A DNA stretch of 64,000 nt from Clostridiales bacterium. GTDB lineage: Bacteria; Bacillota; Clostridia; TANB77; CAG-508. Positions 1 to 38,356 of this stretch are shown piece by piece (position 1 is the stretch's first letter; each line of letters begins with the position of its first letter). The translations under genes and the position numbers were made by a program. The stretch lies in NCBI GenBank assembly GCA_003534295.1, contig DPDV01000013.1:10286-74285 (forward strand). Reading direction: 5' to 3'. The notes beneath the pieces are model-generated. The model ran no database searches. It worked only from the letters and a program-made list of their open reading frames with translations, and had not been told where the DNA came from.

Positions 1-2
1 TA

Positions 3-926
3 ATAAGAGCAAATATAAAACTAATTGCAGATGAATATAACATAAAGGTTGAAAATTTAGATTGGGTAGCTTCTTTTCATACAGAAGAGAGGCACCCGCA
101 CATACATTTTGTATTTTATGATAAATCAATTTCAAAAAAAGCTAAACCATATGTTCAATATGATAAAATTAAGGAGAAGTTAAACTATTCCGTGTATAAA
201 AAGGACATACAACCATTATTAGACCAAAAGAATACCATAAAAAAGGAAATAAAGGATATTTTTAAAGATAATATTGATGAAATTATTTCTTATGATGCAA
301 ATAAAATATTTGGCAATAAAATTGCACAAAATAGCTTAAACGAAATTGCAGAATTACTAAAAGAGATTTATGAGATAAAAGATTTAGAATATAAAACAAC
401 CAAAAGAGGATCTTGGAAAATGCAGTATCAGACTCCTGAAGTAAAAGAAAAAATAAGAGCTATAATTAATAAAATAATACAGTCATCATCACAAATAAAA
501 TCCGAAGTTAATTCATATATAAATGCTTGCATAGAAACAGAAAAAATTAAAAACATAAATAATACATCACAACGAAGTAATATAAAAATGGAGCAAACTA
601 TAAAAAGAGAAACGGAGTTTATTCTAAAAAAGGTTGACAATCAAATTTTAGAATTTTTAAAAGAATCTAAAGGAAAGATTATGGAGGAACAACAAAAATT
701 GTTTGAAAAGGATTTTGATAAGAAAAAATGTAATAAATTAATTTTAAATATACTTTCTAAAAAGATGAGTCACTTATTTATAAATATCAATAATGATTTA
801 AACAATACTTTAAATGTAAAAAAATATCTAAATAAAAAAACAATAAATTTATCATTATCAAAAAGAGCCAAAAGGGAATTTGCATTGAAGCATAGAGATG
901 TTGGAACTATAGATTGGGAAAAATAA
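3..926 (+). CDS. Putative relaxase/mobilisation protein, 5' end outside the window
   Basis: Frame 3 is open from base 3 (IRANIKLIADEYNIKVENLDWVASFHTEERHPHIHFVFYD...) and runs into the 192..926 track ORF. The HxxxxHPHIH histidine cluster resembles the metal-binding His triad of MOB relaxases. The C-terminal tail is K/E/N-rich. Confidence 0.5.
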   Translation: MRANIKLIADEYNIKVENLDWVASFHTEERHPHIHFVFYDKSISKKAKPYVQYDKIKEKLNYSVYKKDIQPLLDQKNTIKKEIKDIFKDNIDEIISYDANKIFGNKIAQNSLNEIAELLKEIYEIKDLEYKTTKRGSWKMQYQTPEVKEKIRAIINKIIQSSSQIKSEVNSYINACIETEKIKNINNTSQRSNIKMEQTIKRETEFILKKVDNQILEFLKESKGKIMEEQQKLFEKDFDKKKCNKLILNILSKKMSHLFININNDLNNTLNVKKYLNKKTINLSLSKRAKREFALKHRDVGTIDWEK

Positions 927-1054
927 ACTTGATTAAATAAAATCAAAAATTTGTTCTGTGTTCGCTTGAACTTCGGAGCAAGTTAATATATAATGAGATA
1001 GCATTAGCAATAAATATACATAAGGATATTAAAAATTATAAGGATGGCAAAACA

Positions 1055-1346
1055 ATGGGACGATTTGTAGAGATGAAAAATGAAGAGCTGTTTGATTTTA
1101 TTAAAAATTACATAGCTGATAAAATTGAGAAGAATAGTGACGAAGTTAGGTATTCATACTTTGAATTAAAAGTAAAGATGGATATGGACGAAAGTGATAT
1201 AGATAGATTTCTAAAATGCAGTATAATTATATTGGAAGGACTTCGGTTACAGAGTTTACTTTACAGGATCAAAATTTGAATTTAAAAATGCAAAAAGAAC
1301 TGTGGAAGATAATGAACTTATGATTGCAGTAAAGGATGGAGAATAG
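1055..1346 (+). CDS. Small hypothetical element protein with a frame break at in-frame CGG 1244-1246
   Basis: The 0-frame ends 11 codons after CGG (RLQSLLYRIKI*). Skipping C1244 gives GYRVYFTGSKFEFKNAKRTVEDNELMIAVKDGE*, ending at 1346, one base before the ATG of the next ORF (1348). That is typical operon packing. Confidence 0.4.
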
Positions 1347-1347
1347 G

Positions 1348-1548
1348 ATGAATTTATATAATAATTTTAACAAACAAGAAAAAGATCTATTAGCAGAGGC
1401 TAATGTAACAATAGAAAATAAAGAATATTCAAAAGATGAGTGTAAAAATATGATTTTTAGTATAGTTGATTATGTAATGAATTATAGTAAGAATGACATT
1501 AGTAAAAATATGAATAAATATAATGAAATCATAGAAAAACTACGATAA
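1348..1548 (+). CDS. Small hypothetical protein (66 aa)
   Basis: The ATG at 1348 lies 6 nt after GGAG. This is the track ORF 1336..1548 trimmed to the start with a Shine-Dalgarno. Confidence 0.4.
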   Translation: MNLYNNFNKQEKDLLAEANVTIENKEYSKDECKNMIFSIVDYVMNYSKNDISKNMNKYNEIIEKLR

Positions 1549-1639
1549 GTTTTATATAAAGTAAAATTTAATGAAAAAGATATATTATTTTCAAGATAGA
1601 GAAGGAAATGGGTTATGGGAAAATTTAATATTTTGATAG

Positions 1640-1668
1640 TTGACAGGCTTTACATAAAGTAATATAAT
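1640..1668 (+). promoter_or_regulatory. Consensus sigma-A-type promoter (TTGACA-17 nt-TATAAT)
   Basis: TTGACA at 1640-1645 and TATAAT at 1663-1668 with a 17-nt spacer, directly upstream of the 1673-4448 gene string. Confidence 0.6.
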
Positions 1669-1672
1669 AACC

Positions 1673-1975
1673 ATGTTTTTACATAATGATATGGGATTTT
1701 TTAGTGTAGTAACTGAATTATTGGCAAATTTATTAACTGATGATTTAAAAATAAAAATTAGTCCAGGGTATGTAGCTATGCACTCAAATTTTACACAAAT
1801 ATATGACAAAACAGCTAATATAGCAGATGAAATAGAAGAGTCAAGTGAAATTATTGATTTACAAAAAATGCCTATAATTGAAAATGGACAAGATGTATTA
1901 GATGATATATATAATTTAGGTAGTAAATCGCCGAAAACAAAATTTATGAAATGGAGTATAGAAAATGCAAAATGA
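1673..1975 (+). CDS. Hypothetical acidic protein (100 aa), first ORF of the nucleotide operon
   Basis: The ORF is co-directional with the downstream genes and overlaps the next ORF by 11 nt. It has no Shine-Dalgarno, and its ATG sits 5 nt after the -10 box, so it may be leaderless. The antisense ORF 1591..2013 looks like an AT-rich artefact. Confidence 0.35.
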   Translation: MFLHNDMGFFSVVTELLANLLTDDLKIKISPGYVAMHSNFTQIYDKTANIADEIEESSEIIDLQKMPIIENGQDVLDDIYNLGSKSPKTKFMKWSIENAK

Positions 1976-2516
1976 TAATAAATTGATAATTGTTTGCTCA
2001 AAGAATAAAGCAAAAAATGAAGCTGTAAAAAATGTAATGATGCAATATTTTAAAAATTTTGAAATAAAGTCTTTAGAAACAAATTCAAATGTGTCGGAAA
2101 CACCAATAGGTGATGAAGAGGGAATAAAAGGATGCCTTCATAGAATAAAAGATGCTATTAGTCAAAATGAAAATGGTAACTTGTATATTGCAATGGAGGG
2201 AATATTATCAAAAACAACATATGGTAGTTTTCTTTGTGGTTGGACAGTTATTTATAATAAAGTTGAAAATGAATATTATTATGGATGTAGTGCAAAAATT
2301 AAAATACCAGATGAAATTATAGAAAAAACTGATAAATCGCAACGATTATCGGAAGTTGTTGCGAAGTTTGTAGGAAGGACAGATGATGAAATAAGTACTA
2401 TAGGTACTAATGGATTACTTACACAAGGAGCTTATACAAGAACTGATGAATTTACAGATTCCATTGTGTGTGCTATAGCAACTAAATATAAAAAAATAAA
2501 TAATAAGGAGAATTAG
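1965..2516 (+). CDS. Inosine/xanthosine triphosphatase-like NTPase (YjjX / NTPase_I-T family)
   Basis: Aligns by eye along its length with E. coli YjjX: SNVSETPIGDEEGIKGCLHRIKDA vs [24 protein letters not shown], and GTNGLLTQGAYTRTDEFTDSIVCAI vs [25 protein letters not shown]. Confidence 0.7.
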   Translation: MQNDNKLIIVCSKNKAKNEAVKNVMMQYFKNFEIKSLETNSNVSETPIGDEEGIKGCLHRIKDAISQNENGNLYIAMEGILSKTTYGSFLCGWTVIYNKVENEYYYGCSAKIKIPDEIIEKTDKSQRLSEVVAKFVGRTDDEISTIGTNGLLTQGAYTRTDEFTDSIVCAIATKYKKINNKEN

Positions 2517-2520
2517 TTAA

Positions 2521-3138
2521 ATGAAACCAAGTATTATTACTATTTCTGGTCCTTCGGCTGCGGGAAAATCATTTTTAGTAGATGAAATAATACAGAATTT
2601 TCCTAATATTACAGAAATAATAGGCTTAACAACTAGACCTAAGAGAAAAGATGAAGTAGATGGAAAATCTAGTCATTTTATGACAAAACTAGAATTGGAA
2701 CAACTTGAAAAAGCGGGGGAGTTAATATTAGTAAAGGAATTTTTTGGTAATAAATATGCCTGGTACAAAAGAGATTTAGTTAATACTGAAGAATTGAGAA
2801 TTATCAATATTTCATATAAGAGTATAGAAGAATTGAAAAGAAACGGCTTGAATATTTTTTCTATATTTGTTCGTCCAAAATCTGAAGAACAGTTAAAAGA
2901 GGTATTGAGATTAAGAACGACATCAAGAGTTGAATACGAAAAAAGATTAAGAGATTATTATGAAAGTGAACAATTTCTTGAAACATCTAAACAAAATTTT
3001 GATTTGTTATTTACAAATTGTTACGATAAAGAGTCTTCAAGAAGATTGCTAAATTATATAAGAAATACATTTATTCGTGACGGAGATTATAGTAGAGGTG
3101 TTAAAAAGATAAGAGAAGATGATGAATATGAAAGATAG
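2521..3138 (+). CDS. Guanylate-kinase-like P-loop nucleoside monophosphate kinase
   Basis: P-loop GPSAAGKS. TTRPKRKDEVDGKSSHF matches the GK motif TTRxxRxGExxGxxYxF. The divergent GNKYAW replaces GNxYGT. Confidence 0.65.
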   Translation: MKPSIITISGPSAAGKSFLVDEIIQNFPNITEIIGLTTRPKRKDEVDGKSSHFMTKLELEQLEKAGELILVKEFFGNKYAWYKRDLVNTEELRIINISYKSIEELKRNGLNIFSIFVRPKSEEQLKEVLRLRTTSRVEYEKRLRDYYESEQFLETSKQNFDLLFTNCYDKESSRRLLNYIRNTFIRDGDYSRGVKKIREDDEYER

Positions 3139-3207
3139 CGAAATATATGATAAAAGTAAAAAATATGAAATCGATTAAAAAGATAAAAAGTTTTTGAGGT
3201 GATAAAG

Positions 3208-3813
3208 ATGAAAGAAATATTATTTGCAACAGGAAATATAGCAAAAGTTGATAGATTTTATGAAAAATTATTAAAAAAGGGAATATTATTAAAATCATTA
3301 AAAGATATAGATATTAAAATTGATGTAGATGAAAATGGAAAAACAGCAATAGAAAATGCAACAATAAAAGCAAAAGCATATTATGACGCAACTAAAATAA
3401 CTACTATGGCTATGGATGATACAATGTATATAGAAGGTATTCCAGAAGATAAACAACCAGGAGTTTTTGTAAGAAGGATAAATGGCAAAAGATTAAATGA
3501 TGAAGAAATGATTGACTATTATACTAATCTTGTAAAAACATACGGTAAAGATGGAAAATTAAATACAAAATGGATATTAGGTATGGTAATTATAAAAGAT
3601 GGTGAAATTTCAACTTATACAGGGGTTACAAATGAATATTATTTGGTGGATGAGCCTGCTAAAGATATAAAAGAAGGTTATCCATTGAGCTCAATATTAA
3701 TAAATAAAAAGCTTAATAAGTATGATATATATTTGACAGAAGAAGATATGAAAATTGGTCAAGCTGATGATAGTGATTTTATTAATTTTATTGAAAACGT
3801 TATCAATAAATAA
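3208..3813 (+). CDS. Ham1/RdgB-like non-canonical purine NTP pyrophosphatase (divergent)
   Basis: N-terminal ILFATGNIAKV (the ATGNxxK signature), ENATIKAKA and MDDT motifs. The C-terminal FGYDP/SHR motifs are not obvious. Start moved to the ATG at 3208, downstream of GAGGTGA. Confidence 0.6.
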   Translation: MKEILFATGNIAKVDRFYEKLLKKGILLKSLKDIDIKIDVDENGKTAIENATIKAKAYYDATKITTMAMDDTMYIEGIPEDKQPGVFVRRINGKRLNDEEMIDYYTNLVKTYGKDGKLNTKWILGMVIIKDGEISTYTGVTNEYYLVDEPAKDIKEGYPLSSILINKKLNKYDIYLTEEDMKIGQADDSDFINFIENVINK

Positions 3814-3851
3814 AAAATCTAAAATAGAATGATGAGGATATAAATTATAAA

Positions 3852-4448
3852 ATGGATATAACAGAAAATATTGAGAATATAATAGAAGAGCCTATACACG
3901 GTAGAAAATTTTATACAGATGATAATATAATCACACTAAAAAGAAAATTAATTGAAATATATGAAAGAATAAATTTAGAGAAGCTTGAAGAAAAGGATAT
4001 AATAAAATATATTGGCGATTTTGTAAAAAATAATGTAAAATATAAGAAATCATATTTTGATAGTTTTACAGGAAAAGTAGAAAAATTTGATTATAGTGAT
4101 GTTAAGTATAGAACTGCATATGGGGCACTTGTTGAAGGAGAAGCAATGTGTGCTGGATATGCCGAAGCTATTAGAATTTTACTTAGTTTGTATAATATTA
4201 AAAGTTTTACAATTTTATCAAAACTTCCATTAGAGCGAAAAAAATTATTACATTATGTTGTTGCTATAAAGTGCAATTGTGATGGAGAGTATATTATATT
4301 AGATCCTGAAAGCGAGCAGTATTGTGAAAAAAATAAAATTGATTATGAAGAATATAAAGAAAAATGTATATATATGCTTTCAGATAAAATATTTACAAAT
4401 AATGTTTTAGGAAAAGATGGAGCAGGAATGCTTGCAGAAGAATATTAA
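3852..4448 (+). CDS. Transglutaminase-like cysteine peptidase superfamily protein
   Basis: Candidate Cys-His-Asp triad: GEAMCAGYAEA, LLHYVVAI, ILDPES. Confidence 0.6.
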   Translation: MDITENIENIIEEPIHGRKFYTDDNIITLKRKLIEIYERINLEKLEEKDIIKYIGDFVKNNVKYKKSYFDSFTGKVEKFDYSDVKYRTAYGALVEGEAMCAGYAEAIRILLSLYNIKSFTILSKLPLERKKLLHYVVAIKCNCDGEYIILDPESEQYCEKNKIDYEEYKEKCIYMLSDKIFTNNVLGKDGAGMLAEEY

Positions 4449-4580
4449 AAAAATATTGAAATACCTAGAGTAATAGGAACTAAAAAAATAGAAAATTTGA
4501 TAGAAAATATCGAAAAGATGGATAGTGTATGTAGATAATATTTTTATAAAATTTTACATAAAAGGAGTTATACTCTTAGT

Positions 4581-4843
4581 TTCTCGAATGAGGACGAAGC
4601 AAAAAAATTCGAGAGTGAGCTCAATGCTACGCAGGTCGATTTTTGGAAAAATGGCAGAGATAATGCTGTAAGAAGAAAGTCGATGCATGCAGACCCGTTG
4701 GATTGTTCCGTTAGTGTGAATTTTGACACTGCCAACTGCACTGAAAAGTGGTCTTTCAAGGTCGCTCTGGCAAATGTCGATGAGATGAATCAGTTTTTTG
4801 CTGATCTCAAGTTCGCACTGTGGGGACCGATGCCGAGTATTTA
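4581..4843 (+). pseudogene. Start-less remnant of a foreign gene with higher GC
   Basis: Open frame FSNEDEAKKFESELNATQVDFWKNGRDNAVRRKSMHADPLDCSVSVNFDTANCTEKWSFKVALANVDEMNQFFADLKFALWGPMPSI* begins right after a TAG and has no plausible start. G+C is about 40-45% by hand count, against a much more AT-rich background. Confidence 0.4.
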
Positions 4844-4881
4844 ACCTGAAATGACGCGTTTGCTAGTGCGTCAAGGAAAAA

Positions 4882-4927
4882 AGAAAGCGTATGGGAGTTA
4901 CATAACTTCCGTACGTTTCTTTTTTTA
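4882..4927 (+). terminator. Rho-independent terminator
   Basis: Stem AGAAAGCGTATGGGA / TCCGTACGTTTCT followed by a T7 run. Confidence 0.55.
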
Positions 4928-5121
4928 TTTAGAGAAAAAATAAAAATATTATAATTCAATGAAAGAACTTTGATATGTTAGATAAAACTAATAAAAAACA
5001 TTTCAAAATTCTTTCATTGTTTTTCTAAAAAAATAAAATATAATGGTATTATGAAAATGAAGAGGTCTAAAAACGGACTTCTTCATTTTTATTTTTTTAA
5101 AAAATGAAGGAGGTTGCAAAT

Positions 5122-6333
5122 ATGAAAAGAAAAATTATAGCAAAAGTAATTATGATGTTTGGTATTGTATTACTATTAACAATTAATTCATCAAATATTG
5201 CAAAAGCAGATACTACAACAATACAGTATGATGGAAAAATAACATATGGATCTTCAACGGTTGGCTCATTCTATGTTGATGGAAAAAGGGCTTTTTGTAT
5301 GGATCATAGTAAGCTAAGTCCATCTAGTGGTACTGTAGCTGAAACTAGCATATATTCAGATTCAAATGTGGTAAAATGCTTGTATTATGGTTGGGAAGGT
5401 GTTGAAGTCTGGTCAGGATTTAACGGTAATAGTAATTATGGTATAGTCGCTACAACTTTAGCATTAGATCACTATGTAAATGGAAGCAATAAGACTGTAG
5501 CAAAAGATTTTATTGCATTTTTAGATTCAGCTCCAATACCAAAAGAATCATTAGAATTTACTACAAAAGATCTTGAAGCTAAAATTCAAGATGGAAAACA
5601 AGTAACAGAACAAACTACAGTTATGGGAACAACAGGAATAACTTTAAAATTTGATATACCAAATGATGTTACTATTGTATGTGACAGTGGTAATTGGTCA
5701 AAAACAGGAGGTACAGTGGAAGTTAGTAATGGAGATTTAATTCATTTTGAAGCTCCAATTACAAAGACAGGTACTTGGTCATCTTCACAAATACCAAACT
5801 CATATATATTAAATGCAATATTAGCTCAAACAAGTGATTCAGGATTACAAAGATTAGTAAGACTTGGGAAAAAAGATCCTACAACATATACAAGTATATC
5901 TATTAATTTTATAAGTACAGGTGCTTTTGAAATCCACAAAACAGATAGTGAAACTGGTAATGGGATAAAAGATACTGTGTATACTGTAAAAAATTTTTCA
6001 GGAGAGCTAGTTGGAAAAATTAAAACAGATGAAAATGGATATGGAACTTTAGAAGGATTATATGCAGGCAACTATACTTTAAATGAAGAAAATTCAAATG
6101 AAAATTATATAAAGGCAACAAGTGATGTAAATAGTGAGATTACAGCAGGAGAAACAACAAAATTGGAATTAACTAATGAGCATAAAAAAGGAAACTTAAA
6201 GATATACAAAGTAGATAAAGATAACAATAGAGTTGTACTTGGAAATGTGCAATTTGACCTATATTCAGAGGAGCTACAAAAAGTTATTGGAACATATACA
6301 ACTGACGTAAATTGTAATAAATTTTACTTGTAA
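5122..6333 (+). pseudogene. Secreted surface adhesin (possible thioester-type N-domain plus Cna-B/SpaA repeats), 3'-truncated by an IS remnant
   Basis: Signal peptide MKRKIIAKVIMMFGIVLLLTINSSNIAKA. RAFCMDH and GLQRLV could form a Cys/Gln thioester pair. There is a clear Cna-B repeat (FEIHKTDSETGNGIKDTVYTV...TDENGYGTLEGLYAGNYTLNE). The second repeat stops at GTYTTD (about 6306) and continues into IS-derived sequence. No LPXTG motif is present. Confidence 0.6.
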
Positions 6334-7429
6334 CATTAAGTCCAACTAAATATTCTGGGACAGAGTAAAAATTATTTTCTATTTGTACAAAGCTGTATTT
6401 ATTAACTAGACTCTTTCTAATATTAGCTAATTCTAAAGGTGGCTTAGTCGGTTTTAAATTTCTTTTTTCTTCTTCAATTTTACTGTTTTCATTAAGTTTC
6501 ATAAGTCGACTTTCCATATATTCAATTACGGAATCTTCTGAAGGAAACTTGTAATTTTCAGCAAATATCTTATTTCTTAAATACTTTACACTACCTTCAA
6601 CATAACCTTTTTCATTGCCACTAAATGCATTTGTTACATTAATGTCAAAACCATAATATATGCTCATTTTTACTAAATCCTCATTTAATTCTTTTTCGCT
6701 TTTTCCAATAAATTTAGAAACTACATTTCTCATATTATCGTAAACAACTTCTTTCTAAACACCTCCAATCATTTCAAAAAATTTAACATGAGAATCTAAA
6801 AATACATCTTTTTTACAGTTATCATAAAGATAGCACCATCTAAAATTTCCAGCAGGACTGGATAAAACAGCTATGTAATATCTTTTCAAAACACCATTTA
6901 TTACAAGTTTAACTTCACCAAAATCATATTCTAATCTATCTCCAAATTCATAATCCTGTTTAATGAAACATTCATTACCAGATTGTTTAAATTTCCTAAT
7001 CTCTAATATCACTGAAGAATAACTTACATCAAACCCTAGCCTTTTAAGTAATTCATAAATTTGTTGTTTTGTTAAAGCTTATTTATTTGTTCCAAGAACC
7101 TTACATTTATTTTCTTCATCTTTTAAAATATTTTCTAATGCTTAAAAAAAATCTGGTGTTAATTTTCTTCTAACTCTTGAAACAGAATTATATTTAGGTT
7201 TGGAAACAATGTCCTCTTGAATTCTTAAAATATTAGTTGAATTAGTTTCATTGTCTAATTTACTTAAATTTTCTTTATATTCATTCCAATATTTATTTAC
7301 GGTTTTTTTATCAATTCCTAAAGATTTAGCAACAGATCTATTAGATAATCCTTTTTCCTTTAATTTTAATATTGCTGATAAATCCATAAAATTTTTCATC
7401 TCCCTCAACCTCCAAATATATTTAAACAT
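6284..7429 (-). pseudogene. istA: IS21-family transposase (IstA) pseudogene
   Basis: HTH N-terminus (LKEKGLSNRSVAKSLGIDKKTVNKYW), GDRLEYDFGEV and VVYDNMRNVV...YYGFDINVTNAFSGNEKGYVEGSVKY motifs. Three in-frame stops are read directly (TAA at 7142-7144, TAA near 7080, TAG near 6752). The C-terminus and istB are missing. Confidence 0.7.
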
Positions 7430-7510
7430 ATATTTGAAGTTATGTAAAAAAGTGGTCCGTTTTTCAATTATTATTAATTGAATTTTTGGTCCACTTTTAG
7501 TTTATCAAAA
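6307..7510 (-). mobile_element. Truncated IS21-family insertion sequence remnant
   Basis: The decayed istA, plus repeated GTGGTCC/GGTCCAC motifs at 7452-7495 that look like multi-site IS21 termini. The other end is lost at the junction with the adhesin gene, about 6306. Confidence 0.55.
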
Positions 7511-7662
7511 ACAGAAGAAAGTTATCTAATATGGCTTATAGAAATTGGAACGTTAGTGCTTATAGTTATGATAGTGATAGAAAACGATATGTTTTTAAAA
7601 GTGAGCTTGGAAAAAGCATTGATGTTCCTAAATATATAAAATTGCGAAAGTAGGGATATAGA

Positions 7663-7863
7663 ATGGACAAGAGTTTGTTAAAAAGAATAATTGTTAGTTA
7701 CGGGGTTTTGGCACTACATTCACTACAAAAATCGGCTAACAAAGATTATAAATTAAAAGATTTTAAGATAGAGCATTTGGCAGATGAAATTGAAGTAATG
7801 ATTGGAGTATATCCAAAAGAAATAGCAATTGTAAAATACTTTAATTTAAAAGATGAAGATTAG
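7663..7863 (+). CDS. Small hypothetical protein
   Basis: Track ORF among a string of short co-directional ORFs (7532-8154), typical of element accessory regions. Confidence 0.3.
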   Translation: MDKSLLKRIIVSYGVLALHSLQKSANKDYKLKDFKIEHLADEIEVMIGVYPKEIAIVKYFNLKDED

Positions 7864-8174
7864 AGTTGAAGGAAGTTATCTTAGACTTTTTAAATGAAGA
7901 ACACGAAAGATTTTATAAAAGGGTATGTGATGAAATGATGTATGATGGTGAAGAAGATATTAGGACACTATGTATCTAAAATCCAACAAGATCAATATTC
8001 TGAGGAGGAAGAGCCATAAAAATTTGGATAGTGTTGTTTGTAGGAATTAGTAGTTGGTGGAAACATGAATAAATCAGATTACGAAAGAAAAATGAGAGAT
8101 AAAGAGGCGATGAGATATTGGAAACAAAAGAATAATTATACACAAAAAACATAAAATTTATTGTGGAGGGTATT

Positions 8175-8387
8175 ATGCAAATTTTTAAATCGAAACATAA
8201 TGGATTGGATTTTTGCCAAATCTATGCCACAAAAGATGAATTACAAAATGAAGAAATACAAGAAAAAATTAACAATATTAAGAAATCTGAGTCAAAGGTT
8301 GCTATGTTTGTGAGTGGGGACGATGAATACTTAAAGATAATTGAAAGAATCATTATGTTGGAGGTAGAAAAAAGAAATGTTTTGTGA
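8175..8387 (+). CDS. Small conserved protein paired with serine recombinase (copy 1)
   Basis: Homologous to 24641..24856 (QIYATKDELQ / QIYLTEDELQ; AMFVSGDDEYLKIIERII / AIFVTGKENYPEILGKII). Both lie immediately 5' of homologous recombinases. The ATG at 8175 follows GGAGGG. Confidence 0.5.
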   Translation: MQIFKSKHNGLDFCQIYATKDELQNEEIQEKINNIKKSESKVAMFVSGDDEYLKIIERIIMLEVEKRNVL

Positions 8388-8455
8388 TATAATAGCTCCA
8401 ATATCTAAAACAGCAAATTACATATATAGCAAGCTCGGAAGGAGCATATATATAT

Positions 8456-10034
8456 ATGAAAGTAGTTGGATATTGTAGATTAAGTAGAGATGAGGATAAA
8501 GAAAATTATGCAAGCATAGAGGAACAAAAAATTATACTACAAGATTATGCTATGTCTAGAGGTTGGAAAATATTAGACCGTGATTTTTATATAGATGATA
8601 ATTTTTCAGGTTATACACTAGATAGACCAAAATTTTCAAAAATGTTAAGAAAGGTGCAAAGAGGAGATATAGATGTTGTTTTAGCAAAAGACCTTTCTAG
8701 AATTGGAAGAAATAATGGAAAAGTATTAGTATTAATTGATGAGTTCAAAGCTATGCAGAAAAATTTAATTTTAGTATCAGAAATGGGAGGGTGTTATGAT
8801 GTTCTAAATGATAGGGATGACACTATTGGTATTACAACTTGGTATAATGAAAGATATGTAAAAGATTGTTCAAAGAAAACAAGAGATCATATGCTTTCAA
8901 AACAAAAAACAGGTAGATTAATAATGGGAAATTACTATGGTTATGTGAAAGATCCAGATGACATTACAAAATTGACTGTTGATGAAGAAATAAGACCTGT
9001 AATTGAATTAGTTTTTAAATTATATATAGATGGAAATGGAATGAAAAAAATAAGTAATATACTGAATGAAAACTATAATTATCCAACGCCATCAGTATAT
9101 TATCAAAAAAAACATTTACAAAGAGGTCGTATATACAAACACCCAGTTCAAGAGTTATGGTCAGATTATATGATAAAGAACATCATAGGTAATGATGTGT
9201 ACTGTGGAACATTAAGAACTCATAAAAAGAAAACAATCTCGATTAGAGGAAAAGCTATAAAATTGCCTGAAAGTGAGCATTTTGTTTTTGAGAATCATCA
9301 TGAGGCTATAGTTTCAAAAGAGACCTTTCAATCAGCAAATGACATAAGAAATCGAAGAGCAACAATGAATCGTCAATGTGGTAAACCTAAAAGAAATTAT
9401 TTCTTTGGAGGATTATGCAGGTGCGCTGAGTGTGGTATGTCAGCATCTGGAATGGTACTTAGGAGAAAAAATAACGCTAAGGCTTATGAATGTAATGATT
9501 ATAAGAAATATGGAACTAAAAGATGTAAAGGACATGAAATTCTTGAAGAAGATATGTGGTTTCAATTTAAAGATTTTTTAAAGAATACTAAAAAAGTTTA
9601 TTTAGATGAAATAAAAAAAATCAATGTACAAAATAAAAAGAAGAAAATGCAGTCCAATAGAAAGAAAATACAGCTCGAACTAGAACAAGCTAATTTAGAA
9701 TACAAAATGATTCTAACTCAGAAAATAAAAGATATAGCTACTCGGACAGAACCCAGAGCAAAATCAAATTATAGTTGATACATATAATAAATTAGAGCAA
9801 GAAAAAATGAATACTATTATTAAATTACAAAAGACACTAGAAAAAGAAGAAGAGGAAATAATTAATGAAAAATTAGAAGAAATTCATACAGCAATAGATT
9901 ATTTTGACGAAATAATCAAAGCAAAAGAGCCAAATAGAGCAATACTAGAAGCTTTAATTGATACAGTATGGATAAATCACGACAAATCTGTAAGATTTGA
10001 CTTAAAACCAGATATTAAATCATTAATTTTATAA
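8456..10034 (+). pseudogene. Large serine recombinase, reading frame broken at in-frame CGG 9743-9745
   Basis: Catalytic N-terminus GYCRLSRDED and a zinc ribbon (CRCAECG...YECNDYKKYGTKRCKGH). The 0-frame stops at 9776-9778. Skipping C9743 gives GQNPEQNQIIVDTYNKLEQEKMNT..., colinear with the intact paralog at 24904..26469 to the shared end KPDIK.LI. Confidence 0.8.
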
Positions 10035-10046
10035 ATTCAAATATAT

Positions 10047-10078
10047 CAATCTAACACATCAAAAGGTGTGTTAGATTG
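10047..10078 (+). terminator. Hairpin terminator after recombinase 1
   Basis: CAATCTAACACA-TCAAAAGG-TGTGTTAGATTG, followed by T-rich sequence. Confidence 0.45.
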
Positions 10079-10151
10079 ATTAAATTTTATTCTAAAAAAT
10101 TTGTCTGATATAGTAATATTGTTTATATACATCAGATAAAAAAATTCCTAC

Positions 10152-10181
10152 GGTATGGAACATACCCCCGTATGAGCATAC
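10152..10181. other. att-like array of alternating GTATG/CATAC half-sites
   Basis: GGTATG-gaa-CATAC-cccc-GTATG-ag-CATAC. It contains TACCCCCGTATG (10163-10174), which is identical to 27968-27979. Confidence 0.45.
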
Positions 10182-10548
10182 AATTTGGGAAAATATCAGA
10201 AACGCTTGCTATTGCATAACATTTCTTTAATCGATAACTTACTCTAAAATGAATAAAAATTGCCACAAAATCGATCGTGAGGCGATTGATTAGGAAGGTT
10301 TAGCAATCATAATTAAAGATGAGTGGATATTCCAAGTTTTTTTACAACACTTACTCACATCAAAATATATTGTATCATAAAAAAGTGAAAAAATAAATAA
10401 CTTTTGGCGTTTTTGCACTTTTAGTGCAAAATTTAATAAAAAATTGCACCAAAAGTACAATAGTAATTTAAGAAATTTTATGTTATAAAATTCTTATAAT
10501 TATATTAATGATAGGAAAATATATTAAATTTTACAAAGGAGGTTAATC

Positions 10549-27956: not shown

Positions 27957-28532
27957 TTGAAGGCTTTTACCCCCGTATGTACTACAGAGATAATTGCTTT
28001 TTCAAAAGCAAATCCATATTTTGAACAATTAAATGCGTGCTTGCTAGGATTAAGCGTAGATAGTAATGCATCACATTTAGCTTGGGTATATGACATTTAT
28101 TGCAAAACTGGAATTAGAGTTCCTTTTCCAATTATAGCAGATAGAAGTGGAGAAATTGCTAGAAAATATGGAATGATATCAAATGAAGTTAGTAAAACGG
28201 AAACTGTAAGAAATGTATTTATTATTGATGATAAAGGAGTAGTAAGACTTATTTTAATATATCCAATGAATGTTGGAAGATGTATCCCAGAAATCTTAAG
28301 AGCGTTAACGGCATTACAAGTGGCAGATAGTAATAAGCTTTCAACGCCGGCTAACTGGGTACCTTGTCAGCCAGGAATAATATCTCCACCACAAACATTT
28401 GAAGCATTGGAAAAGAGAAAAAGAGAAATTGAGAAAAATCAAAATGGAATGACTTGGTATCTTAGTTTTCAAAATGTAAAAGATTGTGAAAAAATAGGTC
28501 AAACAAGTTGTGAGGGAAATAAATTAGAATAG
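27957..28532 (+). pseudogene. Peroxiredoxin (1-Cys/Prx6-like), 5'-truncated
   Basis: It begins at the peroxidatic motif FTPVCTTE. The roughly 40 N-terminal residues normally preceding that motif are absent, a stop lies 5 codons upstream in frame, and there is no RBS. Confidence 0.7.
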
Positions 28533-38273: not shown

Positions 38274-38356
38274 TGGTACCGATGGTGGGACTCGAACCCA
38301 CATGGTTTCCCGCCAGATTTTGAGTCTGGTGCGTCTGCCAATTCCGCCACATCGGC
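38274..38356 (-). tRNA. tRNA-Leu (anticodon CAA), CCA encoded
   Basis: The reverse complement folds as a cloverleaf: acceptor GCCGATG/CATCGGT, anticodon stem CCAGA/TCTGG with loop CTCAAAA, a long variable arm, T-arm GGGTTCGAGTCCC, and 3' CCA. Confidence 0.85.

Follow-up and report, generated by a model that had tools for sequence, protein, structure and literature searches.

Here we describe a putative nucleotide-modification operon in a 64,000-nucleotide stretch of DNA from a Clostridiales bacterium (contig DPDV01000013.1, positions 10,286 to 74,285), referred to throughout as the window. Positions 1640-4925 of the window hold a damaged version of a five-gene operon encoding a thymidylate synthase (TS)-like protein, an NTPase_I-T protein, a guanylate kinase (GK)-like kinase, a Ham1-like protein and a transglutaminase-like protein; the carriers of this operon are integrative mobilizable elements in low-GC human-gut Clostridia. 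The best explanation that we can offer, and one to which we give an even chance, is that the intact operon would provide a route to C5-modified deoxycytidine triphosphate (dCTP) similar to that of the T4 proteins gp56, gp42 and gp1, built from non-orthologous parts, carried on mobile elements, and inactivated in the window.

The damaged operon and its deleted first gene

The window has a G+C content of 24-33%. Over its first ~10.3 kb it matches human-gut metagenome contigs at 99.99% identity, for example locus L001 (in which position 8037 corresponds to window position 1), and its nearest named records are metagenome-assembled genomes of uncultured Clostridia. The features of the operon in the window are the following.

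1640-1668, plus strand: sigma-70-type consensus promoter, TTGACA-17-TATAAT, a 12/12 match; the identical sequence lies 5' of the intact TS-like gene in locus L002
1679-1689, plus strand: junction of a 599-bp deletion at a short homology (TTACATA..), with loss of ~186 codons of the TS-like gene and of its ribosome-binding site
1691-1975, plus strand: 3' remnant (94 codons) of a TS-family, deoxycytidine monophosphate (dCMP) hydroxymethylase-like gene, whose translation exactly matches the C-terminal end of the 284-aa L002 protein
1965-2516, plus strand: NTPase_I-T (YjjX-fold) NTP phosphatase (Pfam PF01931, 4e-37), its start codon within the 3' end of the TS-like gene
2521-3138, plus strand: guanylate-kinase-fold nucleoside monophosphate (NMP) kinase (Pfam Guanylate_kin PF00625, 2e-20)
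3208-3813, plus strand (alternative start 3199): divergent Ham1/RdgB-fold NTP pyrophosphatase (Pfam Ham1p_like PF01725, 5e-13, profile positions 1-134 of 186 only)
3852-4448, plus strand: transglutaminase-fold Cys-His-Asp protein (Pfam DUF553 PF04473, 3e-7)
4885-4918, plus strand: terminator-like hairpin, the first one 3' of the operon

A sequence-only reading of this DNA had described a consensus promoter driving a tightly packed gene string, and both descriptions hold: the promoter is a perfect match, and the genes are spaced by an 11-nt overlap and then by gaps of 4, ~69 and 38 nt, with the ATG at 3208 taken as the Ham1-like start by gene callers and homologues. The enzyme families that it named were likewise recovered in profile searches (PF01931, PF00625 and PF01725), except that the transglutaminase-like protein matched PF04473 where PF01841 had been proposed. 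NCBIfam places the four enzymes in the same families, with all scores far under the equivalog cut-offs; they are thus divergent members of these families and not orthologues of characterized enzymes.

The same reading opened the string with an acidic 100-aa open reading frame (ORF) at 1673-1975. This is not a gene—it is a deletion chimera of a leader ATG and the last 94 codons of the TS-like gene—which also rules out a genuine acidic protein such as an inhibitor or antitoxin. By blastn, window positions 1-1689 correspond to L002 7428-9115 and window positions 1679-4561 to L002 9715-12597, both at 99.9% identity, and a three-way alignment shows that the promoter was kept and the leader ATG fused in frame to the TS-like remnant.

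To place the damage in context, the exact NTPase protein was looked up in public assemblies, where it is listed in 4,219 blocks, and ten loci were examined. Three of the ten (L002, L003 and L005) encode a Thymidylat_synt (PF00303) protein of 265-284 aa 5' of the NTPase, with the same overlap as in the window; in L004, L008 and L011 a separate 128-bp internal deletion splits the TS-like gene into pieces of 131 and 109 aa. The 599-bp deletion and this independent event mean that the lead gene has been destroyed at least twice. Most copies are broken: in exact-sequence counts across public assemblies the 94-aa remnant was found on at least 1,000 contigs and the 109-aa fragment on 392+49, compared with 315 contigs for the intact 284-aa protein (plus 14 on which it was called as 265 aa), that is, >1,400 contigs with broken alleles versus about 330 with intact ones. 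The predicted modification pathway is dead in the window, where the four surviving genes would at most hydrolyze or phosphorylate nucleotides. As a practical consequence, the operon counts here as a broken copy, and no gene should be annotated at the "100-aa acidic ORF".

A predicted dCMP 5-hydroxymethylase

The intact 284-aa TS-like protein (from L002) matches PF00303 at 6e-14, and its best PDB sequence match is T4 dCMP hydroxymethylase (T4 dCH), at 8.5e-7. The AlphaFold2 model (pLDDT 94) has as its top fold match the cytidine monophosphate (CMP) hydroxymethylase MilA, with a TM score of 0.79; T4 dCH and ThyA score 0.65-0.67. Residues that set the chemistry of TS-family enzymes were read from an alignment of 30 family members, 47-82% identical, and are numbered as in E. 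coli ThyA. The catalytic cysteine, C146, is kept within a DFPCT motif that is invariant in the 30 sequences. At N177, 29 of the 30 have Asp (PYD(M/I)GFF), aligned with T4 Asp179; Asp at this position selects cytosine instead of uracil (PMC13326640; PMC5175136).

Three further positions speak to the product and to the sugar. The L143 position is Asp in the family (D156-F-P-C), as in the DFMCT of T4 dCH, and the lack of a bulky hydrophobic residue there has been linked, as a correlation only, to water access and a hydroxymethyl product (PMC13326640). D169 is kept (D182, invariant in the 30 sequences); the substitution D169N marks flavin-dependent 5-hydroxy-dCMP synthases (PMC13326640), so the TS-like enzyme is not of that type. 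Finally, S167 and R126' are also kept and invariant, as S180 in SRSTD and R139 in DTRR. Ser167/Arg126' is the deoxyribose type found in ThyA and T4 dCH, with Ala/Lys in the CMP-preferring MilA and BcmA (PMC5175136), and a MilA-like CMP substrate, a candidate prompted by the fold match, was judged less likely given these determinants. From the residues alone, then, the intact TS-like protein is a predicted dCMP 5-hydroxymethylase. Databases label this first gene "thymidylate synthase" and name the operon proteins by family only.

Relatives of the TS-like protein at 48-57% identity are found in Pectobacterium, Erwinia, Salmonella, Vibrio, Bacillus, Acetivibrio and Saccharibacteria. The closest phage homologues, from Lactobacillus phage ATCCB and Enterococcus phage Planchet, share the PYD and (D/E)PCT motifs with the family and adjoin glucosyltransferases, a nucleotide kinase and a dUTPase; the kinases beside these nearest phage homologues are not homologous to the GK-like kinase. 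When the operon proteins were searched against PHROGs, only the TS-like protein and the kinase had matches. The family also includes unusual architectures: at L041 5829-7100 (P0007) a TS-like protein of 423 aa carries an N-terminal GrpB-like (PF04229) domain, and in the related L046 an internal deletion has shortened the TS-like product to 244 aa; both loci have a split kinase gene.

Conserved partners of the TS-like gene

Gene neighborhoods were surveyed at 90 loci with a TS-like relative, gathered from look-ups of single homologues and from scans of viral and metagenome collections. Neighbors were classified by phmmer and Pfam, and dereplication with a threshold of 90% identity left 52 lineages with sufficient sequence 3' of the TS-like gene. 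In 25 of these, from Clostridia to Enterobacteria, NTPase_I-T comes next, usually with overlapping stop and start codons—the overlap, ..AATGCAxAATAA, is the same from Clostridia to Pectobacterium, and its conservation suggests that the two proteins form a complex. A MutT-like NUDIX gene (PF00293/PF14815) takes the position in nine lineages, including three viral contigs, and a Peptidase_S51 protein in four; the remaining 14, chiefly the most distant TS relatives, have another gene or none. The exchange of NTPase_I-T for an unrelated NUDIX protein in the same position points to NTP hydrolysis as the need of the TS-like enzyme, and the obvious reason for such coupling would be the supply of dCMP from dCTP, as T4 gp56 provides it for gp42. 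The TS-like/NTPase_I-T pair is an uncharacterized enzyme couple that reaches from Clostridia to Pectobacterium, Salmonella and Saccharibacteria-like genomes.

The remaining genes of the operon have a narrower distribution. A GK-like kinase follows the pair in eight lineages, all of them low-GC and Firmicutes-like except L053. The Ham1-like gene joins this kinase version in five lineages and the transglutaminase-like gene in four, down to 69% TS identity (L040, L042 and L073). Ratios of nonsynonymous to synonymous change (dN/dS) lie between 0.06 and 0.54 for all five genes in copies that are 48-87% identical, values that are approximate, with dS near saturation.

In the literature searched, neither the TS-like/NTPase_I-T pair nor the five-gene cassette is described, an absence that is not proof of novelty, and the MetaGPA paper makes no mention of the TS-like, NTPase_I-T or kinase families.

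Conserved neighborhoods bear on two other explanations. The first is that the five genes are an accidental string of independent house-cleaning or salvage genes from a chromosome, with the TS-like protein as an additional thymidylate synthase that might, for example, give tolerance to antifolates; thyE-dfrA on Tn4003 is an example of such an association. The database name of the first gene fits this idea, as do the chromosomal relatives of the Ham1-like protein at 84-87% identity and the setting of the cassette in L053, where it lies between two dihydrofolate reductase genes and beside thyA and glyA. However, a canonical thyA is already present next to the cassette in L053, 29 of 30 family members have Asp and not Asn at the specificity position, gene order and the overlapping junction are conserved across phyla, and purifying selection has kept all five genes in copies whose TS identity is as low as 69%. 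We consider an accidental string very unlikely.

The second explanation is that the cassette makes a soluble pyrimidine antimetabolite or nucleoside product, for instance a 5-hydroxymethyl-cytosine derivative as in bacimethrin or mildiomycin, which would serve in competition or signaling and not in DNA. In many proteobacterial and soil contigs the TS-like/NTPase_I-T pair is followed by a haloacid dehalogenase (HAD) phosphatase, an amidohydrolase, a formyltransferase and a major facilitator superfamily (MFS) transporter, in Acetivibrio by a LOG-like protein, and in L048 by two nucleoside-deoxyribosyltransferase-like proteins; these metabolite-like clusters speak for a soluble product, as does the top fold match of the TS-like model, MilA. 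In Clostridium botulinum, bacimethrin synthesis also begins with a TS-family CMP hydroxymethylase (PMC5175136). Against it, the Clostridial version carries a kinase instead of a phosphatase, glycosidase or exporter, the sugar determinants are the deoxy-type Ser/Arg and not the Ala/Lys of MilA and BcmA, and the operon has no tailoring or export gene. On this evidence a soluble product seems unlikely for the Clostridial operon.

Several of these loci merit description in their own right. A six-gene cluster of TS-like (cytosine-type), NTPase_I-T, HAD phosphatase, Amidohydro_1, Formyl_trans_N and MFS transporter genes is widespread and apparently uncharacterized; it is found in Pectobacterium-, Erwinia- and Salmonella-like and in soil loci (L026, L050, L054, L056, L057, L059, L061, L065, L068, L074 and others), and it resembles a biosynthetic route whose product, a compound derived from a pyrimidine, is exported. 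A separate branch (L035-L037, L055, L063, L070, L076, L079 and L091) encodes TS-like proteins with a hydrophobic N-terminal extension, followed by an overlapping gene for a MutT-like NUDIX protein of ~135 aa, and three loci of this branch are on IMG/VR viral contigs. In L053, the GK-like/TS-like/NTPase_I-T cassette occupies positions 6756-10286, and the two flanking dihydrofolate reductase genes are identical; this arrangement may reflect duplication of the target upon insertion, or else an artifact of assembly.

The hydrolases and the kinase

The sequence-only reading had counted two unrelated families of inosine/xanthosine triphosphatases (ITP/XTP-ases) and a purine NMP kinase, and had proposed an ITP-clearing module as counter-defense or self-protection, with a speculative link to the RADAR defense system. 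The two families are in fact related: a profile-profile comparison aligns them over 165 columns (E 1.4e-4), and they share the ITPase/Maf/YjjX fold, which includes pyrimidine-specific and 5-methyl-CTP-specific pyrophosphatases (PMC3899018).

The PF01931 match of the NTPase_I-T protein spans profile positions 1-159 of 162, and its best PDB matches, YjjX and VC0702, align over 165 residues; N14, K17, E78 and T153 are invariant in the clade alignment. It scores below both equivalog cut-offs, at 88.7 vs 175 bits for NF003459 and 80.4 vs 117.1 for TIGR00258. The window protein is 36-40% identical to TS-linked NTPases, compared with 29% to a chromosomal house-cleaning copy, and by this measure it belongs to the subfamily that travels with TS-like genes.

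The Ham1-like protein conserves T8, N10, K13, E42 and D70, keeps the N-terminal TxNxxK motif, and has an MDD that aligns with the ADD of RdgB. In the C-terminal region the alignment shows no SHR motif—where the canonical copy reads GFGFDEIF...KISAR, the Ham1-like subfamily has EGYPLSSI—and in ITPA-type enzymes the C-terminal GFGYDPxF and SHR motifs serve purine base recognition. When the operon hydrolases were compared with house-cleaning ITPases in NCBIfam, the scores stood at 98 bits against an equivalog cut-off of 199 and at 56 bits against one of 234. Relatives of the Ham1-like protein at 40-87% identity are chromosomal: their neighbors are NUDIX and HD-domain genes, and in some genomes a house-cleaning NTPase_I-T gene lies at a distance of 2 kb. 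A member of the subfamily adjoins a canonical RdgB-like gene in L014, which marks it as a paralogue, presumably with a different substrate. The operon's Ham1-like protein looks like a recruited paralogue of this kind, and its candidate roles are those of a second dCTPase or a safety valve.

Two loci of uncultured Clostridia (L013 2588-3829 and L019 7589-8815) encode members of this subfamily as fusions with an HD-domain phosphohydrolase, clustered with genes for a canonical Ham1, a NUDIX protein, a small nucleoside-deoxyribosyltransferase-like protein and a house-cleaning NTPase_I-T. The cluster looks like a chromosomal nucleotide-sanitation island.

The GK-like kinase matches mouse guanylate kinase (PDB 1lvg) at 9e-16, scores 87 against an NCBIfam equivalog cut-off of 160, and keeps the P-loop GPSAAGKS and the TTRPKRKDE motif (TTRxxRxxE). 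In alignments with 1lvg and within the clade, however, the positions of the guanine-binding Glu, Ser/Thr and Asp are occupied by Leu, a clade-invariant Trp and Asn/Ser (NISY), respectively. The guanine-binding residues are those that we take, from the yeast and mouse guanylate kinase structures, to be Glu69, Ser80 and Asp100 of the yeast enzyme. With these replaced, the kinase is unlikely to be GMP-specific, and its predicted role is that of a kinase for a modified (d)NMP.

Taken in full, the ITP-clearing explanation holds that the hydrolases clear ITP, XTP and dITP and that the kinase handles purine NMPs, either to guard the element or its host against RADAR deamination or as a means of erasing a Kongming-type dITP alarm. 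Some observations favor it. Characterized members of both NTPase families hydrolyze ITP, XTP and dITP (PMC3899018), and dITP has been proven to act as an immune messenger, in whose synthesis phage dNMP kinases assist (10.1101/2024.12.20.629578). Moreover, the Ham1-like protein has its nearest relatives in house-cleaning clusters on chromosomes, the operon travels on mobile elements, and in the window these genes are intact while the TS-like gene is gone. The Ham1-like protein also keeps its catalytic Asp-Asp pair, unlike the catalytically dead defensive HAM1 protein KomB (10.1101/2024.12.20.629578).

The context of the genes argues otherwise. The true first gene of the operon is dCMP-hydroxymethylase-like; NTPase_I-T is a translationally coupled partner of a cytosine-type TS enzyme in 25 lineages across phyla, mostly without a kinase or a mobile context, and is replaced by a MutT-like NUDIX protein in nine; the kinase lacks guanine-binding residues; and the Ham1-like subfamily lacks the C-terminal SHR of RdgB/ITPA-type enzymes and coexists with the adjacent canonical RdgB in L014. 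As for RADAR, no deaminase, SIR2 gene, RADAR or Kongming component was found nearby, and PADLOC, run on the operon proteins, returned nothing relevant—only a weak mad8 match to the kinase and methyltransferase matches for the neighboring MT-A70 gene. We regard ITP clearing as quite unlikely; for the NTPases and the kinase, a supporting part in a cytosine-modification pathway is more probable.

Kongming deserves separate comment. The KomABC system, like the operon, has a HAM1-family protein and is found on mobile elements, and both Kongming and RADAR involve (d)ITP. The dITP alarm of Kongming is triggered by foreign dNMP kinases, and in KomB a His stands in place of the catalytic Asp; the KomB gene is accompanied in every case by one for a SIR2 effector, and the system includes an adenosine deaminase (10.1101/2024.12.20.629578). 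The operon's own kinase would be a foreign dNMP kinase of the triggering kind. The Ham1-like protein differs in each respect: its Asp-Asp pair is intact, no examined locus has a SIR2 or deaminase gene, and there is no PADLOC match. A Kongming-like defensive HAM1 identity was rejected on account of the kept catalytic Asp and the missing SIR2 partner.

A proposed T4-style route to modified cytosine

The route that we favor would have four steps. First, the ITPase-fold hydrolases (NTPase_I-T and probably the Ham1-like protein) would convert dCTP to dCDP or dCMP, feeding the second step and lowering the canonical dCTP pool. Second, the TS-like enzyme would use methylene-tetrahydrofolate to convert dCMP to 5-hydroxymethyl-dCMP. 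Third, the GK-fold kinase, with its guanine-binding residues replaced, would phosphorylate the modified dNMP. Finally, host nucleoside-diphosphate kinase would make the triphosphate, which DNA polymerases would incorporate. This output is plausible without a dedicated polymerase, as co-expression of a phage TS homologue and a dNMP kinase in E. coli gave modified cytosine in plasmid DNA (PMC13326640). The purpose is a more speculative guess: DNA replicated in the donor, including the element itself, may be partly resistant to restriction. A pathway under a consensus promoter may also be costly to the host and may have led to repeated loss of the first gene; a plausible cost of this kind fits the two independent deletions and the dominance of broken alleles.

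Several points weigh against this proposal. Every chemical step is read from residues and gene context. The characterized YjjX and Ham1 enzymes act on ITP, XTP and dITP, not on dCTP, and the closest relatives of the Ham1-like protein (84-87% identity) are in ordinary chromosomal contexts. The best fold match of the TS-like protein, MilA, is a nucleoside-antibiotic enzyme, and the occurrence of the TS-like/NTPase_I-T pair in small-molecule-looking clusters indicates that the pair is not tied to DNA modification. Mobility genes were found within the fetched flanks in only about half of the kinase-containing lineages. The elements lack genes for a DNA polymerase and a glycosyltransferase and have no obvious means of withstanding hmC (hydroxymethylcytosine)-dependent restriction, and we know of no bacterium that hydroxymethylates its own DNA pre-replicatively.

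Pre-replicative base replacement, with a TS-family enzyme, a dNMP kinase and a dNTPase, is commonly considered a device of virulent phages. A stronger form of the proposal, which is tentative and which we rather doubt, is that the intact cassette makes 5-hydroxymethyl-dCTP in a bacterium, through ITPase-fold dCTPases and a GK-fold hydroxymethyl-dCMP kinase, and that a non-viral element, and possibly the chromosome, carries pre-replicative hmC. If true, this would be the first such hydroxymethylation pathway outside viruses; non-viral mobile DNA would also be capable of chemical disguise. "ITPases" of the YjjX and Ham1 types would have roles in pyrimidine pathways that are hidden by current annotation, and gut metagenomes may contain bacterial hydroxymethyl-cytosine DNA that sequencing pipelines ignore.

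Comparison with known systems

Besides Kongming and RADAR, the operon can be compared with three groups of known systems. With the T4 dCTPase/dUTPase gp56, dCMP hydroxymethylase gp42 and dNMP kinase gp1 it shares the same three predicted activities: hydrolysis of NTP to NMP, TS-family C5 modification of dCMP, and a dedicated NMP kinase. The TS-like protein has in common with gp42 the catalytic Cys, the Asp at the base-specificity site, the Asp at L143, and the Ser/Arg deoxyribose sites; however, the two are only about 20-25% identical, and the best fold match is MilA. The other parts are different. T4 gp56 is a MazG-type dCTPase, whereas the hydrolases here have the ITPase fold (YjjX-type and Ham1-type), and the operon kinase has a guanylate-kinase fold with no match to gp1. 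The operon is also without the glucosyltransferase, DNA polymerase and host-DNA nuclease of T4, and its carrier is an integrative mobilizable element of 12-18 kb and not a virulent phage.

The second group is formed by MilA/MilB (mildiomycin) and BcmA/BcmB (bacimethrin), in which a TS-family cytosine-nucleotide hydroxymethylase is likewise encoded in a cellular and not a viral genome. Some TS-like/NTPase relatives also have glycosidase-type partners (LOG-like, Nuc_deoxyrib_tr), reminiscent of the N-glycosidases MilB and BcmB. In contrast, MilA and BcmA prefer CMP and have Ala/Lys at the ribose sites, where the TS-like family has invariant Ser/Arg, and the window-type operon has a kinase but no glycosidase, methyltransferase or exporter.

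The third group comprises E. coli YjjX and RdgB/Ham1/ITPA. The operon hydrolases belong with these by profile and PDB matches, and they keep the N-terminal (S/T)xNxxK and the acidic catalytic residues; unlike them, they fall under the equivalog cut-offs, and the Ham1-like protein has no SHR and matches the profile to position 134 of 186.

The carrier element

The carrier is an integrative mobilizable element, as read from a relaxase, a site-specific recombinase, gene-specific insertion and flanking repeats. Its features in the window, beyond the operon itself, are listed here.

1-926, plus strand: MobP3-family relaxase, with the first ~45 codons left of the window and the frame read from base 3; the full 353-aa L002 protein matches NF041499 at 8e-40
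1055-1548, plus strand: two small ORFs (74 aa, 1055-1279; 70 aa, 1336-1548), between relaxase and operon in both element types
4560-4844, plus strand: start-less remnant of a small ORF, of noticeably higher G+C, homologous to a 114-aa ORF 3' of the transglutaminase-like gene in L040
5104-6333, plus strand: thioester-domain/SpaA adhesin gene (409 aa, signal peptide), which ends abruptly at insertion sequence (IS)-like remnants
6284-7429, minus strand: IS-like remnants, three ORFs (149, 85 and 95 aa) with helix-turn-helix domains, which truncate the adhesin gene
8456-9778, plus strand: large serine recombinase (440 aa) with Resolvase, Recombinase and Zn_ribbon_recom domains
10163-10301: right-end repeat of the element (139 bp), matched by blastn to L001 329-467, a 97%-identical left-flank copy beside the N-terminal fragment of a split peroxiredoxin
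27957-28532: C-terminal 191 codons of the peroxiredoxin (1-Cys, AhpC-TSA), starting LKAFTPVCTTE, after the last recombinase and an AAA_14/DUF4143 ATPase

The relaxase has its HPHIH motif at window positions ~94-108, and the two small ORFs have no family matches in Pfam or NCBIfam. Window positions 1-28532 are a tandem array of serine-recombinase elements in a 1-Cys peroxiredoxin gene, with recombinases at 8456-9778 and 24904-26469; the N-terminal 51-55 codons of the split gene lie left of the window. The second element of the array carries SPFH/SHOCT, zinc-ribbon, TMEM43-like, cation-ATPase, DUF1697 and HSP20 genes.

The view of the operon as cargo of a transferable element is well supported. 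The operon and the upstream relaxase segment (5.1 kb, 99.9% identity) are common to two different MobP3-relaxase/serine-recombinase elements. In the sister element (L002/L003/L005 4620-17966, ~12.5 kb), the insertion splits the sporulation protease gene yabG (Peptidase_U57) into parts of 116 and 150 aa, and the element encodes an MT-A70 methyltransferase with a ribbon-helix-helix domain and three serine-recombinase ORFs. Diverged copies of the operon are found beside a tyrosine integrase and a MobV relaxase in L032 and beside a 604-aa serine recombinase in L042; others, in L033 and in L041/L046, are in chromosomal-looking contexts. The operon does lie between a relaxase and a serine recombinase, as had been described, but these are not immediate neighbors—the two small ORFs, the ORF remnant, the adhesin gene and the IS remnants come between. 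The called genes of the loci include no type IV secretion or conjugation genes, which makes the elements mobilizable. A near-identity DNA search of window positions 1-9800 against plasmid and phage collections gave no matches.

As a side observation, the sister element in yabG resembles the "skin"-type intervening elements of sporulation genes.

The transglutaminase-like protein and a second variable site

The last gene of the operon encodes a member of a small, unnamed family of 34 proteins, with homologues of 226-238 aa. In the window it has a TAA at codon 199, where the 228-aa allele P0121 has Leu, with the loss of 30 residues; the lost 30 codons are still readable at 4449-4538. The AlphaFold2 model (pLDDT 92) has a papain-like core with an invariant C100-H134-D151 triad, and Foldseek matches it to TglA, TGase 4xz7 and LapG (E 2.5e-4 to 1e-3; TM score up to 0.48).

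Rfam and tRNA scans of the window gave a sole match, a tRNA-Leu at 38274-38356. This tRNA gene and the end of an ABC-transporter gene mark a second variable spot with a Ham1 gene: at the site corresponding to window positions ~37.5-38.4 kb, L120 (7417-8901), which represents a different strain, has a small minus-strand insert that includes a 186-aa Ham1p_like gene.

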